From an uncultured Peptococcaceae bacterium (GTDB taxonomy: Bacteria > Bacillota > Dehalobacteriia > UBA4068): 64,000 nt of DNA. The translations under genes and the position numbers were made by a program. Shown here piece by piece: positions 1-56,434 of the stretch. Below the pieces are notes generated by a model. The model saw only the letters and a program-made list of their open reading frames with translations. It had not been told where the DNA came from and did not search any database. The stretch spans positions 5,706 to 69,705 of the forward strand of contig CASEQE010000009.1 of NCBI GenBank assembly GCA_949289995.1, given 5' to 3'. Within the stretch, counting starts at the first letter, position 1. Every line of letters begins with the position of its first letter.

Positions 1-575
1 TGGCCGACGGCTTAATCGGCCAAATGATGGAACCGGTAACCCTGCCGGAATTCAAAAGCGATGCACAAATCCAAACGGCCAAACCTTGGGCGGCCACCGG
101 TTGGCATGAAGGTTGCGGCCGCCCTCGGGCCATCGTCAATTCTCTGCATATTACCGATGAAGACTTGGAAGCGCTGCATGAACGTTTGCAAGCTACTTAC
201 CGCCAAATTGAAGCCAATGAAGTACGGGTGGAATTGTTCAACACAGAAAATGCAGAAATTGTCATCGCCGCCTATGGTACCATTTCCCGGGTTTGCCGCT
301 CCGCCATTAATGAACTGGCAAAACAAGGCGTAAAAGTGGGCTTAATTCGTCCCATTACGCTTTGGCCCTTCCCCAGCCAAGCCATAGCCCAGGTTGCCGC
401 CGAGCAATCGGTGAAAAAGTTTTTAACCGTGGAAATCAGTGCCGGACAAATGGTAGAAGATGTACGTTTGGCGGTAAACGGTAAAAAACCGGTAGAATTT
501 TTCGGCTATCCGGGCAGCCGGATTGCCACGGTTGATGAAATTGTCGCCAAGGTTTTGGAAATGAAGGAGGGATAA
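1..575 (+). CDS. 2-oxoacid:ferredoxin oxidoreductase alpha subunit, C-terminal part (5' end lies outside the window)
   Basis: The reading frame is open from the window edge. The C-terminal region (GLIRPITLWPFP, EISAGQMVEDVRL, FGYPGS) is typical of KorA/PorA-family alpha subunits. Cognate beta and gamma subunits follow directly. Confidence 0.75.
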   Translation, partial: ADGLIGQMMEPVTLPEFKSDAQIQTAKPWAATGWHEGCGRPRAIVNSLHITDEDLEALHERLQATYRQIEANEVRVELFNTENAEIVIAAYGTISRVCRSAINELAKQGVKVGLIRPITLWPFPSQAIAQVAAEQSVKKFLTVEISAGQMVEDVRLAVNGKKPVEFFGYPGSRIATVDEIVAKVLEMKEG

Positions 576-24895: not shown

Positions 24896-24956
24896 ATATA
24901 AACAAAAATAATATAGCGCAAAGAACGCCGCAATGCCGCGTGCAGCTTCTTTGCGC
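24896..24956 (-). terminator. Rho-independent terminator downstream of thrC
   Basis: GCGCAAAGAA-21 nt loop-TTCTTTGCGC, followed on the minus strand by TATATTATTTTTGTTT. Confidence 0.5.
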
Positions 24957-25028
24957 TTATCAAGGATCGCGATTGATTTTCTAAAAAACCCTACGGAATC
25001 ATACTCACGCGCAGAATCAACAAAATGA

Positions 25029-26504
25029 TCAGGCAAGATCCAAAATATGTTTTACGGTATCCCGCATCTCATTTTTTGCACAAAAACGGTTGTGCCGTAT
25101 GGGCAAGAAAGCGATTTGGCGCAAGCTCTCCGGAATGGGTACGTGGGTATAATCCTCCAACAGCTGCGGCATATCCGTTTCTGCAACTTGATCAATGGGC
25201 CGGTCTAAAGCAGACAGCACTGCTTGAGAGAACTTATAAGGGTTGGCTGTGGAAGCCAACAGTAGTGGATACTGCCGGCTATGCGCTTGCAAGTATTCTT
25301 CAGCCACCGTATATCCTACGGCGGTATGGGGATCTAACAAATAGCCATATTGTTCATATACTCTTTTAATAGTAACGGCCGCCTGCGCACTATCCGCTTT
25401 TCCGCCGCTCATCGCTTTCTGTACGGCAGATAGAATATGTGGTTCTAAAGAGAATTGGCCAGTTTCCTGCAGTTCTCTAAACCATTTGTTTACCAGAGTC
25501 GCATCATTGCCGCTAATATCAAAAAGAAAACGTTCAAAATTACTGGAAACCAAAATATCCATGGATGGACTAGTGGTTTTCAGCAAAGGCCGACAGCTAT
25601 TATATACGCCAGTTTCCAACACTTTGGTCAAAACGTCGTTTTCATTGGAAGCACAAAGCAAACGATGCACCGGCAAACCCATCTTTTTGGCATACCAGGC
25701 TGCCAAAATATTACCAAAATTTCCTGTGGGAACGGCAATATCAATTGGATCTCCCAATTCAATCCGTCCGGCACGATATAATTGACGATAGCCGTAGTAG
25801 TAATAGACGATTTGCGGTAATAAACGTCCCCAATTGATAGAATTGGCTGAGGTAAACTGTTTGTCGTTCATAGATAACAGCACGTTTAACTCCGCATCGG
25901 CAAATAAAGCTTTCACCCCAGATTGACAATCGTCGAAATTGCCTTCCACGCCAATCACATAGGTATTCTGACCGCCAGTCGTGCGCATTTGCAACTCTTG
26001 TGTAGCGCTTACGCCGTCTTTGGGATAAAAGACGATAATTTTTACCCCCGGTACATCTTTAAAACCCTCTAAAGCCGCTTTGCCCGTGTCGCCGGAAGTG
26101 GCGGTCAATACCACCAATTCCTTATCGTTACCACAGCAAGCGCCTGCCAATTTCATCAATCGTGGCAATGCCTGTAAAGCCATATCTTTAAAAGCTGCGG
26201 TGGGACCATGCCATAATTCCAAAATATGCATATCGCCTACGGATACGCAGGGCGCTACGTCTTCGGGGAAATGGGGTAAATAAGCGCCGGCAACGGCTTC
26301 CGCTATTTGTTCCGGCGAAAATTGTCTTAAATATAAAGCAAAAATACCCGCAGCAATTTCCACATAACTTTTTTCGCCAATTCCTTCAATTGGATACGCG
26401 GGAAAACGCTCCGGAACATATAATCCACCGTCCGGCGCTAAACCTTCCTGGATGGCTACGGCGGCGCTAACCTTGTCACCACCTCTAGTACTAAAATACT
26501 CCAT
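25029..26504 (-). CDS. thrC: Threonine synthase (long form)
   Basis: PLP-lysine motif TAAFKD, about 490 aa. Start MEYFSTRGG after GGAGG. The ORF-track upstream extension would overlap trmB. Confidence 0.85.
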   Translation of the reverse strand: MEYFSTRGGDKVSAAVAIQEGLAPDGGLYVPERFPAYPIEGIGEKSYVEIAAGIFALYLRQFSPEQIAEAVAGAYLPHFPEDVAPCVSVGDMHILELWHGPTAAFKDMALQALPRLMKLAGACCGNDKELVVLTATSGDTGKAALEGFKDVPGVKIIVFYPKDGVSATQELQMRTTGGQNTYVIGVEGNFDDCQSGVKALFADAELNVLLSMNDKQFTSANSINWGRLLPQIVYYYYGYRQLYRAGRIELGDPIDIAVPTGNFGNILAAWYAKKMGLPVHRLLCASNENDVLTKVLETGVYNSCRPLLKTTSPSMDILVSSNFERFLFDISGNDATLVNKWFRELQETGQFSLEPHILSAVQKAMSGGKADSAQAAVTIKRVYEQYGYLLDPHTAVGYTVAEEYLQAHSRQYPLLLASTANPYKFSQAVLSALDRPIDQVAETDMPQLLEDYTHVPIPESLRQIAFLPIRHNRFCAKNEMRDTVKHILDLA

Positions 26505-26505
26505 G

Positions 26506-27159
26506 TCAACCTCCTTCCCCCGGATGAGCGGCCATATAAAAAATCGGTTGACCACTTTTCCGATATCGACTTTCATATTCGGTAATGATAGCCGATTCTG
26601 CCAGTGGCAAATCATTACATATCCGTTCAATTTGCCAATTTGCAGCACGAAAATTTTCTAAAGACCAGTCAAATAACGGCCGATTATCTGTTTTAAAGCA
26701 CAATTTTCCTTTCGGATCCAAAATCATATGGTAAATAGATAAAAAAGAAGGCGCAGTTAAACGCCGTTTATGATGTCGGTTTTTTGGCCAAGGATCAGGA
26801 AAATTAAGAAAAATTTTTTCCACTTCGCCCGGTGCAAAAATTTCTGCAAGTCTGGCGGCATCACACCATAGCAGCCGCAGATTGTCTGGCGGTGCGGCGC
26901 CGTCTTCAGTTGCAAAACGCTGCAATGCCTGTAAAATCATCTCCGGACGTACTTCTAAAGCAACAAAAAAACAATCGGCGGTAGAATATGCGGAAGAAAA
27001 AATAAACTTTCCCCGCCCCATACCAATTTCCAAATGTAGCGGACGCCCATCACTGAATCGCCGCCAATACCCTTTATATGCAACCGCTTCTTGCTCTGTA
27101 AGCACTAGCGGGCTTTGGCCAATGGTGGAGGCGGCACCTGGAATATGCCGTAAACGCAT
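26506..27159 (-). CDS. trmB: tRNA (guanine46-N7)-methyltransferase
   Basis: LEIGMGRGKF SAM motif and FPDPWPK. Its stop and the thrC start form TGAcATG. Confidence 0.85.
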   Translation of the reverse strand: MRLRHIPGAASTIGQSPLVLTEQEAVAYKGYWRRFSDGRPLHLEIGMGRGKFIFSSAYSTADCFFVALEVRPEMILQALQRFATEDGAAPPDNLRLLWCDAARLAEIFAPGEVEKIFLNFPDPWPKNRHHKRRLTAPSFLSIYHMILDPKGKLCFKTDNRPLFDWSLENFRAANWQIERICNDLPLAESAIITEYESRYRKSGQPIFYMAAHPGEGG

Positions 27160-27168
27160 CCTCTACTC

Positions 27169-27507
27169 CTATTCCCACAAAGATTCCACTTTTTCTTGCA
27201 CTTCGTCGTTGCTTAGGCCTTCTATTTTAACCAAGCGTCTGGTAATTGCATCATCCCAAAACGCAGATTTTTCGGCCATTTTTTGAAACTTTTTACGATT
27301 CTCATTCTTTACCAGAGCACGGGTTTTAGCGTTGGCTCCCATGATGGAAAGGATACCCTTGGCCTTCAGCAAATCATCGACGGTTAAATCCTGATATTCC
27401 TTTTGCAAAAAGGCCATAACCGAAGTATAGTAAGATTGAAATTCCGCAAAAGGCAATTCTTCTTCCATTTTGATAAATTCGGCCATTTGATTAAACAACG
27501 ATTCCAT
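27169..27507 (-). CDS. Hypothetical small helical protein
   Basis: About 112 aa with no recognised domain. GGAGGAAAAA precedes the second ATG. It lies only about 20 nt from the mapped 3' end of the RNase P RNA. Confidence 0.4.
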   Translation of the reverse strand: MESLFNQMAEFIKMEEELPFAEFQSYYTSVMAFLQKEYQDLTVDDLLKAKGILSIMGANAKTRALVKNENRKKFQKMAEKSAFWDDAITRRLVKIEGLSNDEVQEKVESLWE

Positions 27508-27529
27508 TTTTTCCTCCATAAAATATAAA

Positions 27530-27895
27530 TCTGCCGAGCAAGCCTATAAGCCGGGTTCTGTCGTGGATGAACATCTATCTAAGCATACCGTTGCCGGTAT
27601 GCTTTAGCGACCGCAACGAAAAGCAGACGGGCCGCCCTATGCTTTTCTATAAACCGCAATGGTTCAAGGGTCTTGCTCCGAATGGGGTTTACCTAGCCGC
27701 CTGGTCTCCCAAGCGCTGGTGCGCTCTTACCGCACCGTTCCACCCTTACCGGCAAACGCCGGCGGTTTGTTTCTGTGGCACTGTCCTTAAGGTCGCCCTC
27801 ACCGGCCGTTAGCCGGCATTCCGCCCTATGGAGCCCGGACTTTCCTCAAGCGCGCCCTTGCGGGTTACGCTTGCGTCCATCCAGCTTACTCGGAA
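27530..27895 (-). ncRNA. rnpB: RNase P RNA (rnpB), bacterial type A architecture
   Basis: The minus strand carries P4 GAGGAAAGTCCGGGCTCCATAGGGC, GGTAAGGGTGGAACGGTGCGGTAAGAGCGCACCAGC and the 3' ACAGAACCCGGCTTAT. A P1 helix pairs CCGAGTAAGCT with AGGCTTGCTCGG. Length is about 366 nt. Confidence 0.85.
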
Positions 27896-27944
27896 ATTCT
27901 ACATTCTTTACTTATTTTATTCTGCTTTTATTCTGTCGCCAAAC

Positions 27945-28682
27945 TTATTCGTTATCGGTAAATAAAGCCCTACCGCATTTCTCACAATACGTTCGCTGAC
28001 CAGATACTGTCCTTTTATATAAAACCGGGGTAACTATAGTATGACATCCATCGCAAACGTGCTCTGATGACAAATACGCCACCGGCGATCCGCCAAATTT
28101 GTGCTGATTGGCCTCAAACCAAGCTAACTCCCCTTTTTCAATAGAGGGAAGCAAAGCTGCAATTTCTGCTGCCACTTCTGCCTCTTTATGCGCATAGTCT
28201 TCGCATATTTCTTTATAATCTAATTTCAATCGCTCAAAAGATTGACATTCTTCTTCAATTTTTTGTTTTAAATCTACCGCCTCTTGTTCAATTTGCTGCA
28301 AGTGATGAATTGCTTCTTCATCTTGGGTCTTAAGAGCTTCCATTTTTTCTCCTAAGGCGGTCATTTGCGCCTCTCTGGCGGATAAGACCTTGACCGTAGA
28401 GGTGGAGCCATCATACATTGCATCCTGTTCTTTTTGCAATTTATGATTTACATCCGCCAACGATTCTGCATATTCTTTACGATTTTGCAATAATTCACCG
28501 CGCATACAAGCCAATTGCTGCCAACGACGTTTATCAGCTTCATATTCCGATTTGATCTTTGCCATTTGGCAATAAGTTTCACTATGAAGTTTTTCTTGTT
28601 CCAACAATTTTTGCGCGTTTTGTAATTTTTGCAATTGATGTAGCTGCTTCAACATAATACTCTCCCTGTCCTCATCTTCCAC
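27945..28682 (-). CDS. Coiled-coil protein with C-terminal C4 zinc-ribbon (DUF164/zf-RING_7 family)
   Basis: Long Q/E/K-rich coiled coil, then CDGCHTIV...YCEKCGR. Adjacent to trmK, as in the Bacillus yqfN/yqfO region. Confidence 0.6.
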   Translation of the reverse strand: MEDEDRESIMLKQLHQLQKLQNAQKLLEQEKLHSETYCQMAKIKSEYEADKRRWQQLACMRGELLQNRKEYAESLADVNHKLQKEQDAMYDGSTSTVKVLSAREAQMTALGEKMEALKTQDEEAIHHLQQIEQEAVDLKQKIEEECQSFERLKLDYKEICEDYAHKEAEVAAEIAALLPSIEKGELAWFEANQHKFGGSPVAYLSSEHVCDGCHTIVTPVLYKRTVSGQRTYCEKCGRALFTDNE

Positions 28683-29382
28683 AACGACATAAAACTTTAT
28701 CTATTTGAGCGATAGAATTCTGCAATTGCTGCAAACGTTGAGCCGCGTTTTCTCCCGGCATGGCCGAAACCTGCTCAATTAATGATAACAAATCCTTACG
28801 TTTTAGCTGCAAAAAATTGGCTAAAAAAGGATGGGATCCCGCTAAAAGACAGGGACCAAAAGTTAATTCGTCCTCATCCAAACACATTTCGCCATGCTCA
28901 GCGGCAATAACTTCATAGTAAAAACCGTTATCCAACGCCAGCTGCTCCGCCACAATCCGCCACCCGTTATCCATTAACCAGCGGCGCAAGGCAGCCGTAT
29001 TTTTTTGCGGCTGCAACACCAATCTCTTTGTTTGACTGATGACCAAGGGCTGGCGGGATAAGATGTCTTGGATTAAATAACCGCCCATACCGGCTATGGT
29101 TATCGTCTCCGCTTCCCCGGGTTGTAAAGGCGCCAAACCATCGCCTAAACGAACGTCGATTTGGCGGGAAAGCGAAAGCAAATCTACCAATTGGCAAGCG
29201 TTTTCATAAGGTCCAACAGCCCTATCCACTGCGACAACAAAAGGACATATGCCGTTGATCACCAGATAAACGGGCAAATAATTATGATCCGTTCCAATAT
29301 CTGCCGCCGTTTTTCCCGGTAAAACAAACTCGGCTACGGCGTGCAAGCGATTACTGAGTTTCACTTGCATCTTCTCGTTCAC
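28672..29382 (-). CDS. trmK: tRNA (adenine22-N1)-methyltransferase
   Basis: 236 aa with an N-terminal SAM-MTase motif (DIGTDHNYLPVYL). YqfN/TrmK family. Confidence 0.7.
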   Translation of the reverse strand: MNEKMQVKLSNRLHAVAEFVLPGKTAADIGTDHNYLPVYLVINGICPFVVAVDRAVGPYENACQLVDLLSLSRQIDVRLGDGLAPLQPGEAETITIAGMGGYLIQDILSRQPLVISQTKRLVLQPQKNTAALRRWLMDNGWRIVAEQLALDNGFYYEVIAAEHGEMCLDEDELTFGPCLLAGSHPFLANFLQLKRKDLLSLIEQVSAMPGENAAQRLQQLQNSIAQIDKVLCRCGR

Positions 29383-29899: not shown

Positions 29900-31303
29900 A
29901 TGGAAAATTGCCAAATCCAAAAAGTAGAATTATTGGTGCAAAACGCGCCCGGCGTTTTGGGCAGAGTCATTGCACATATACGCAATGAAGGCTGGAATAT
30001 CAAACGCCTATATGTGGATGAAACGGAAAATAGCGCCGTTTCTAAAATGGAAATCGATATAGAAGGTAAGCACAGCAAATTGGCGCAAGTTTTGGAACGA
30101 ATGTGTGCCATAGACTGTGTGATCAGCGTTATGCTCAACGGCCAAACCAAAACCAAAAACCAAGTTGTCTTACCCAGCGCCGAACCACGTATCACTATGC
30201 AACCGCCCCGTATCCAGGATAAGGCTGCTAACGTCTATCGGGTACTGACCATTAATCCTGGTTCTACATCTACCAAATTTGCCATCTACGACGATGACGA
30301 ATCCATTTTTATCCACACGATTCGTCATAGCAAAACAGATTTAAGCGGTTTTCCTACGCCAGCTGCACAAAAAGATTATCGAAAACAATGTATTCTCGAA
30401 GTTTTACAGCAGGTTGGTATGGATTTGCAATCTTTAGATGCCGTAGCTGGCAGAGGCGGTTTGCTCAAACCTATGGAAAGCGGCGTATATTTGGTCAATG
30501 AAGCCATGTTGAACGACTTGCAATCCCCAGCCGCCTCCATTCATGCATCCGCACTCGGCGCCATTATCGCCCATGAAATTGCCGCGGAACAAAACATCAA
30601 CGCCTATGTGGTAGATCCGGTGGTGGTAGATGAAATGGATCGCAACGCCAAACTAACCGGTTTGCCCGGCGTAGAACGAACTAGCATCTTTCATGCCTTA
30701 AATCAAAAAGCCATTGCCCGTAAACTTTCCGCAAATATTGGTAAACCCTATGAAAACTGCCGTTTGATTATCGCCCATTTGGGCGGCGGTATTACCATCG
30801 GCGCTCATCGTTATGGACGGGTTATCGATGTAAACGATGCCCTGGCAGGCGAAGGCGCCTTCACGCCTGAGCGCAGCGGCAGCATTCCTGCTTTGCCTTT
30901 AATCAAAATGTGCTTTTCTGGAGAATATACGGAACAAGAAATGATTGATAAAGTGGTAAAAAATGGCGGCATACAAGGATATTTAGGCACAAACGATATA
31001 CGTAAAGTAGAAAAAATGATGAACAACGGCGATGAATTTGCCGCCTTGGTTTTGGATTCTATGGCCTATCAAGTTTCAAAAGAAATCGGCGCCATGTGCG
31101 CCGTTTTGGAAGGCCGGGTGGACGCGATTATTCTCACCGGCGGTCTAGCCAATTCTATTCGATTTACCGGAGCGATTAAACAAAGAGTAGACAGATTGGC
31201 GCAAGTATACGTTTTTCCTGGCGAAGATGAAATGCAGGCCTTAATGGCCGGCGTTTTACGGGTATTGCGCGGCCAAGAACCGGTGGCGATATATGAGTCC
31301 TAA
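29900..31303 (+). CDS. buk: Butyrate (short/branched-chain acyl) kinase with N-terminal ACT-domain fusion
   Basis: Residues about 1-75 form an ACT-like βαββαβ segment (VELLVQNAPGVLGRVIAHIRNEGWNIKRLYV). Residues about 110-467 are an ASKHA butyrate kinase (INPGSTSTKFAIYDD...IAHLGGGITIGAHRYGRVID). Confidence 0.75.
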   Translation: MENCQIQKVELLVQNAPGVLGRVIAHIRNEGWNIKRLYVDETENSAVSKMEIDIEGKHSKLAQVLERMCAIDCVISVMLNGQTKTKNQVVLPSAEPRITMQPPRIQDKAANVYRVLTINPGSTSTKFAIYDDDESIFIHTIRHSKTDLSGFPTPAAQKDYRKQCILEVLQQVGMDLQSLDAVAGRGGLLKPMESGVYLVNEAMLNDLQSPAASIHASALGAIIAHEIAAEQNINAYVVDPVVVDEMDRNAKLTGLPGVERTSIFHALNQKAIARKLSANIGKPYENCRLIIAHLGGGITIGAHRYGRVIDVNDALAGEGAFTPERSGSIPALPLIKMCFSGEYTEQEMIDKVVKNGGIQGYLGTNDIRKVEKMMNNGDEFAALVLDSMAYQVSKEIGAMCAVLEGRVDAIILTGGLANSIRFTGAIKQRVDRLAQVYVFPGEDEMQALMAGVLRVLRGQEPVAIYES

Positions 31304-44617: not shown

Positions 44618-44818
44618 TTCCAAAAAAACGCCCCATGCACATGCATGGGGCGGAGGCTAGCAATAACGCTACACTTCATCTTCTTTCATCCGGACTATAC
44701 CGTCGGCTCAGGAATCACACCTGATCAACGTTTGCCTACCATAGCGAAAACGCTCGCGGGCTAAGCGAATACGATCGCCTTACCGCCGGTGGGGACTTGC
44801 ACCCCGCCCCGAAGACAG
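44618..44818 (-). promoter_or_regulatory. FMN riboswitch (RFN element) with intrinsic-terminator expression platform
   Basis: Minus strand: CTTCGGGGCGGGGTGCAAGTCCCCACCGGCGGTAAGG ... GAGCCGACGGTATAGTCCGGATGAAAGAAGATGA. This aligns near base for base with the B. subtilis ribD RFN. It is followed by hairpin CCGCCCCATGCATGTGCATGGGGCG plus T7, then the ribU RBS. Confidence 0.9.
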
Positions 44819-44827
44819 CCTAATTGA

Positions 44828-56337: not shown

Positions 56338-56434
56338 TGGCGGAAGCGTGTGGGAATCGAACCCACCCAAGACGGGCGTACCGCCTCGCGTCGGATTTGA
56401 AGTCCGCGTCAGCCACCAGGCCAAATCCGCCCCC
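56338..56434 (-). tRNA. selC: tRNA-Sec (selenocysteine tRNA, anticodon UCA) candidate
   Basis: 97 nt. The 3' end ACGCTTCC-G-CCA is identical in form to the E. coli selC 3' end. 5-bp T-stem with GGTTCGATTCC. Anticodon loop CTTCAAA. 6-bp D-stem with a 4-nt D-loop. Long variable arm. 8-nt acceptor with two G·U pairs and one G×A mismatch. selA lies directly upstream. Confidence 0.65.

Follow-up and report, generated by a model that had tools for sequence, protein, structure and literature searches.

In the 64,000-nt stretch of DNA from an uncultured Peptococcaceae bacterium analyzed here (the window), the gene for a type-A RNase P RNA, rnpB, is closely followed on the same strand by a conserved 112-aa ORF, trmB and thrC. 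The most economical reading of this arrangement, to which we assign a probability of roughly 0.6, is that rnpB would be co-transcribed with the ORF-trmB-thrC genes and subsequently excised from the common transcript; it is preferred because the spacer between rnpB and the ORF contains neither a terminator nor a called promoter, and because the junction is kept in related genomes. Initiation would take place at the promoter that immediately precedes rnpB, possibly with an additional input by read-through from trmK and a zinc-ribbon gene, and RNA polymerase would then cross an unstructured 23-nt spacer and stop at a strong terminator past thrC. An endonuclease would cut within the AU-rich spacer and thereby free the ribozyme, whose 3' end would then be trimmed, and the leftover mRNA of ORF-trmB-thrC would offer GGAGG sites of its own for translation. 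From sequence features we infer the read-through and the cleavage site, as well as the nuclease, for which RNase Y, RNase J or an E/G-type enzyme are our guesses.

The Rfam cmscan analysis of the whole window identified rnpB on the minus strand (27892..27531) as a full-length match to RF00010, which covers model positions 1-367 of 367 with 284.9 bits (gathering score 100, E = 4.6e-92). This match upholds the type-A call of the original prediction and corrects it in that the feature belongs to the minus strand. Overlapping matches within the RNase P clan were reduced to the single best one, and RF00010 was the match reported; thus, RF00010 outcompeted the type-B model RF00011, an order that is read from the clan competition and comes with no separate RF00011 figure. 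The comparison of the two models by cmscan, which had been proposed as a check, was run in this way, and the type-B model did not score higher. The RF00010 alignment of rnpB contains the helices P1-P4, P12, P13, P14, P15-P17, and P18, with P1 pairing 27892..27883 with about 27545..27535. The P4-forming core motifs CR-I (GAGGAAAGUCCGGGCUCC; GAGGAAAGUCC) and CR-V (ACAGAACCCGGCUUA; ACAGAA..GGCUUA) align exactly in the window rnpB and are invariant in eight relatives. Both sequence strings quoted in the original prediction are found in the RF00010 alignment; the one that had been placed in P15-P16 (GGTAAGGGTGGAACGGTGCGGTAAGAGCGCACC / GGUAAGGGUGGAACGGUGCGGUAAGAGCGCACC) was misassigned, since the Rfam structure line gives it as the 3' strand of P12, J12/13, and P13, which belong to the specificity domain.

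The presence of P13 and P14, as opposed to P10.1, discriminates between type A and type B (PMC1874661). In the window rnpB, the P13 (GGUGCGGUAAGAGCGCACC) and P14 hairpins, both type-A specificity-domain helices, are aligned to RF00010 with high posterior probability. The RNA deviates from the type-A consensus in two respects only, namely by an additional J15/16 hairpin and by the lack of the GGU motif. That it is in truth of type B (Bacillus-like) or atypical in some other way is extremely improbable in view of P13 and P14 and of the end-to-end match that survives the competition with RF00011, the latter result already refuting a type-B identity. We conclude that the window encodes a standard type-A catalytic RNA of RNase P with a predicted role in pre-tRNA 5' maturation; its type-A identity is real but ordinary, and it represents one more rnpB of a well-known family.

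The extra hairpin, GAACC-AUUGC-GGUUU (27651..27665, minus strand), constitutes a 16-nt insertion in J15/16 relative to the RF00010 consensus. Hairpins of 4-6 bp are present at this place in the window and in six relatives (loci L008, L009, L013, L002, L005, and L010), and their stems differ by compensatory changes (AACC/GGUU, GGGC/GCCC, GGCU/AGCC, GGCUC/GAGCC) that support a J15/16 helix predicted from the sequences. The stem strands are out of register in the MAFFT alignment; therefore, these changes were read directly from the sequences and carry no formal covariation count. The GGU motif of the P15/16 internal loop, which pairs with the 3'-CCA of tRNA, is absent in the window, where J16/15 reads GUUGC. 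Two relatives, L001 and L011, lack the hairpin and retain CGGGUAAGG / GGGUAAGG (GGU) in J16/15, so that across the compared rnpB RNAs the loss of GGU coincides with the presence of the hairpin. As GGU is typical of many, not all, type-A RNAs and is not a defining element, the type-A membership stands, and the J15/16 hairpin together with the GGU loss is a minor structural variant. CCA is encoded in all four tRNA genes inspected, two from the window and one each from L001 and L010. The P17 hairpin with its U-run inside rnpB was flagged as terminator-like in the window (27625-27637, minus strand), in L010 (2288-2302), and in L002 (3855-3871); it belongs to the ribozyme fold, and we treat it as a false positive.

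The type-A RNA had been presented as unexpected in view of the type-B RNAs of Bacillus-class organisms, type B being named after Bacillus (PMC4919922). This expectation fails for the lineage in question. Among species-representative genomes, the closest named relatives are metagenome-assembled genomes labelled "uncultured Peptococcaceae bacterium," and the next group is Lachnospiraceae; as the Peptococcaceae are part of the class Clostridia, the organism, a gut bacterium, is assigned to this class and not to the Bacillus group. The sporulation genes cotJA, cotJB, and cotJC are present in the relatives. For Clostridium acetobutylicum and C. botulinum, the family RNaseP_bact_a, not the type-B family, is given (Chen et al., 2011; PMC3025663), and the occurrence of type A in some Firmicutes had already been recorded in a survey of 2007 (PMC1874661). 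The window lineage has in common with these two species that they are Clostridia-class Firmicutes with a type-A RNase P RNA; it differs in being an uncultured lineage labelled Peptococcaceae, and the likeness covers the RNA type. The significance is small: a type-A rnpB is added from an uncultured Clostridia-class lineage, and the notion of type B across the Firmicutes is corrected. Elsewhere in the window, there is a tRNA-Sec gene (56338-56434, minus strand; RF01852, 69 bits; anticodon TCA by ARAGORN), which implies selenoprotein synthesis in this organism, and an FMN riboswitch (44674-44820, minus strand; RF00050, 116 bits).

The genes around rnpB form a compact cluster on the minus strand, in the order trmK, zinc-ribbon gene, rnpB, 112-aa ORF, trmB, and thrC. 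The first gene, trmK (28672..29382; PF04816 TrmK, 1.3e-56), encodes tRNA (adenine22-N1)-methyltransferase and overlaps by 11 nt with a gene for a coiled-coil and C4 zinc-ribbon protein (27945..28682; CT398/COG1579-like), for which the PF02591 Zn_ribbon_9 match (2e-4) is below the cut-off; its orthologs in the relatives show weak PF24481 CT398_CC matches. The zinc-ribbon gene stops 52 nt upstream of rnpB, and the terminator scan detected no terminator in this gap. On the other side of rnpB, the conserved 112-aa ORF (27169..27507) starts with the ATG at 27507, which is preceded by GGAGG at 27517..27513; this choice of start over an upstream in-frame ATG at 27519 is backed by the N-termini of homologs, and the upstream codon has no ribosome-binding site. 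The ORF stop is separated by 9 nt from the start of trmB (TAG-GAGTAGAGG-ATG), which encodes tRNA (guanine46-N7)-methyltransferase (26506..27159; PF02390, 1.4e-41; TIGR00091, 2.9e-44). The threonine synthase gene thrC (25029..26504) is supported by TIGR00260 (4.4e-71) as well as by Thr_synth_N, PALP, and THR4_C. The TGAcATG arrangement of trmB and thrC given in the original prediction is borne out by the junction GGAGGTTGAcATG, in which the thrC ATG lies 1 nt past the trmB stop and a GGAGG lies within the 3' end of trmB. The cluster is closed by an intrinsic terminator past thrC (24900..24962, minus strand), a long G+C-rich hairpin followed by AUAUUAUUUUUGUUU. This terminator was flagged by the terminator scan, and the surrounding region (24965..24900) folds with -28.1 kcal/mol (z = -3.87; 1 of 200 shuffles folds as well), with the U-tract following it. 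Divergently from trmK, the plus strand encodes a 467-aa protein (29900-31303) in which an N-terminal ACT domain is fused to an acetate/butyrate-kinase-family domain.

The junction between rnpB and the ORF consists of an AU-rich 23-nt spacer, AUUUAUAUUUUAUGGAGGAAAAA (27508..27530, minus strand), which includes the Shine-Dalgarno sequence of the ORF and is followed by AUG. The distance from rnpB to the ATG amounts to 23 nt from the Rfam end (27531) or 27 nt from the last P1 pair (27535), in agreement with the prediction of GGAGG and an ORF start about 20 nt after rnpB. Neither the terminator scan nor folding revealed a terminator-like hairpin in the spacer, and the junction region (27545..27480) folds with -9.1 kcal/mol (z = +0.71), 149 of 200 shuffles being at least as stable. 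From trmK to thrC, the minus strand contains terminator candidates only inside genes, and the sole extragenic candidate is the one that follows thrC; the scan covers terminators of the intrinsic type, and Rho-dependent termination is beyond the reach of sequence. A candidate sigma-70-type promoter for rnpB, TTGGCG-17-TAAAAT (27914..27942, minus strand), is defined by consensus match (9/12), with its end about 21 nt upstream of the mature 5' end. By the same kind of consensus scan, no two-hexamer sigma-70-like promoter was found on the minus strand from 27914 to 26638, which covers rnpB and the spacer; this crude scan misses -35-less and alternative-sigma sites, e.g., in the 3' part of rnpB, and weak promoters escape it. 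Moreover, a promoter and a leader with a Shine-Dalgarno sequence do not fit in the 23-nt spacer. A terminator or an independent promoter between rnpB and the ORF, either of which the original prediction had named as evidence against a common transcript, was thus found neither by the scans nor by folding.

About 10 related metagenome genomes share the gene order trmK-(Zn-ribbon)-rnpB-ORF-trmB-thrC, and their TrmB identity ranges from 46 to 76%. On their contigs, trmK is succeeded in most cases by the zinc-ribbon gene and then by a gap of ~430 nt, the ORF, trmB, and thrC, and the gap gave a full-length RF00010 match every time (265-300 bits). In all relatives examined (L001, L002, L004, L005, L008, L009, L010, L011, and L013), rnpB is located directly upstream of the ORF, with 20-68 nt between the Rfam end and the start codon. 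Promoters with a 10/12 match were found right upstream of rnpB in three of them: L002 and L010 share TTGACG-17-TATGAT, and L001 has TTGTAA-17-TATAAT preceded by TG as an extra element. They are stronger than the 9/12 promoter of the window and occupy the same place. In the relatives scanned, no terminator was reported from rnpB to the ORF. Outside the clade, the linkage was sought among 80 trmB loci from species-representative genomes, where rnpB or the ORF occurs nearby only in L012 and L013; the trmB loci of Lachnospiraceae and Brevibacillus are without it, and a linkage of rnpB and trmB beyond the clade is thereby rejected. A few kb downstream of the cluster, a cspA thermoregulator (RF01766) precedes a cold-shock gene in L001 (7110-7437) and L013 (4440-4808).

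Alternatively, rnpB and ORF-trmB-thrC may form separate units, with the RNase P transcript ending after P1 by non-canonical or Rho-dependent termination aided by the U-tract, and with the downstream genes using a weak or -35-less promoter of their own in the rnpB end or the spacer. We consider this arrangement unlikely, although several features of the spacers point in its direction. TATAAT-like boxes recur there, reading TATATT in the window and L009 and TATAAT in the longer spacers of L001, L002, and L010, the last of which has the extended -10 form TGCTATAAT; the downstream operon may therefore own a promoter in the three genomes with TATAAT. In the window, however, transcripts initiated from a -10 element at TATATT would begin within or behind GGAGG and would thus lack a usable leader, and, as for the window, the consensus scan called no two-hexamer promoter on the coding strand within rnpB or the spacer for L001, L002, L010, and L011. 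With respect to termination, P1 is directly succeeded by U-rich tracts in the window, L009, and L013, and these could favor some termination or pausing. The 68-nt spacer of L011, a more distant relative, contains a 10-bp hairpin, AAAGUCUGGC-UUG-GCCGGGCUUU (160-185, plus strand), with UUUU behind it; this element could cause leaky termination or serve as a signal for processing. The window junction, in contrast, has no local hairpin, and P1 is a long-range helix around ~340 nt, unlike the geometry of an intrinsic terminator, which is not a long-range helix enclosing a segment of this size. Taken together, the TATAAT-containing spacers and the L011 hairpin make extra promoters or leaky termination possible in some relatives, and for the window we continue to favor co-transcription of rnpB with ORF-trmB-thrC followed by excision.

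The product of the 112-aa ORF is an acidic protein (pI 5.0), for which AlphaFold2 gives a five-helix bundle with a pLDDT of 96.6. Its 14 close homologs (52-100% identity) all originate from uncultured Bacillota, and the family alignment has the invariant motifs ELPF and RKKF.KMAEK..FW. No relative was found in Pfam, NCBIfam, or PDB, and fold searches returned only generic helical-repeat matches. When 1.84 billion representative proteins were searched with a profile, only 59 clusters (at 50% identity) were obtained for this family, and a second profile search widened it to Brevibacillus, Halalkalibacter, Alkalihalophilus, Ammoniphilus, and Desulforamulus, with all members (P0001-P0185 being the family sequences) annotated as hypothetical.

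In every clade member, rnpB and trmB flank the ORF and trmK is found upstream, and the protein is well conserved and has a confidently predicted fold; these observations would suit a dedicated tRNA-maturation operon, trmK-rnpB-ORF-trmB, in which the ORF product acts as an accessory factor tied to RNase P or tRNA maturation. An elaborate version would have a ribozyme excised from mRNA and two tRNA methyltransferases expressed from one promoter, the ORF product as a new accessory factor, and the J15/16 hairpin, which replaces the CCA-binding GGU motif, perhaps as its docking site. We regard both versions as very improbable. Five family members outside the clade (from Desulforamulus, Brevibacillus, Halalkalibacterium, and two metagenomic lineages; 44-46% identity) are found in unrelated gene contexts, and no Pfam-annotated trmB was called beside the ORF in these five loci, a result that covers protein genes annotated by Pfam. 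Thus, the linkage of the ORF with rnpB looks clade-specific and lends little support to a functional tie, and guilt by association is rejected for this pair. The generic results of the fold searches also speak against such a role, as does the presence in the same cluster of thrC, which has no link to tRNA. Furthermore, the acidic pI is not what is expected of an RNA-binding cofactor.

The start of an ORF about 20 nt after rnpB is not special to this locus, since tight junctions of this kind appear to be a common layout that is recurrent in many unrelated lineages. We scanned JGI metagenome contigs for the pattern ACAGAACCCGGCTTA, 15-45 nt, GGAGG, 4-9 nt, and ATG, and obtained matches in at least 120 loci (L097-L216); as the scan has no denominator, it demonstrates recurrence, not frequency. 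Among the matches listed, 86 loci have an ORF that begins at this ATG and is at least 100 aa long, and these long ORFs represent 46 Pfam families, including AIR-synthase-related (19), YebC/TACO1 (13), LpxC (4), and MatE (4) proteins. In the same set of listed matches, 95 ORFs reach a length of 60 aa, and only 2 of these fall into the 112-aa family. An RF00010 match ending 16-39 nt before the ORF was confirmed for 16 of 20 loci sampled from the matches listed. As type-A rnpB often has a real ORF with a ribosome-binding site within 16-40 nt downstream, read-through units of rnpB and mRNA may be widespread. The recurrence also suggests that the cutting of RNase P RNA out of transcripts that contain mRNA may be widespread and under-described, a point that is not specific to the window.

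Papers on Borrelia and Listeria and an E. coli compendium contained nothing relevant to co-transcription of rnpB. The window RNA and its junction can be set beside three further known systems. With the type-A RNAs of RF00010, such as E. coli M1 RNA and the Thermotoga maritima P RNA, the window RNA shares the full-length model match, CR-I, CR-V, and the P helices; it differs from them in the clade-specific J15/16 hairpin of 4-6 bp and in the lack of GGU in J16/15, and, relative to the RF00010 consensus, its P3 loop and P12 are slightly reduced in length. With respect to processing, RNase E takes part in the maturation of E. coli M1 RNA, as cited in a passage of PMC11251521, and the mature 3' end is proposed there to arise from an endonucleolytic cut of a longer transcript. 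The same kind of origin is proposed here for the window RNA; according to that passage the E. coli RNA undergoes RNase E cleavage and trimming, whereas for the window organism the nuclease is a guess. A parallel in gene layout is E. coli ssrS, which encodes 6S RNA and is co-transcribed with ygfA as a conserved bicistronic unit (PMC2848244). In both cases, the gene of a stable non-coding RNA has a protein gene behind it in the same orientation, no intrinsic terminator lies between them (at rnpB-ORF, in an unstructured 23-nt spacer), and the layout is maintained across the clade. The two systems differ in the RNA and in the downstream genes, and co-transcription has been demonstrated for ssrS-ygfA, whereas for rnpB-ORF we infer it.
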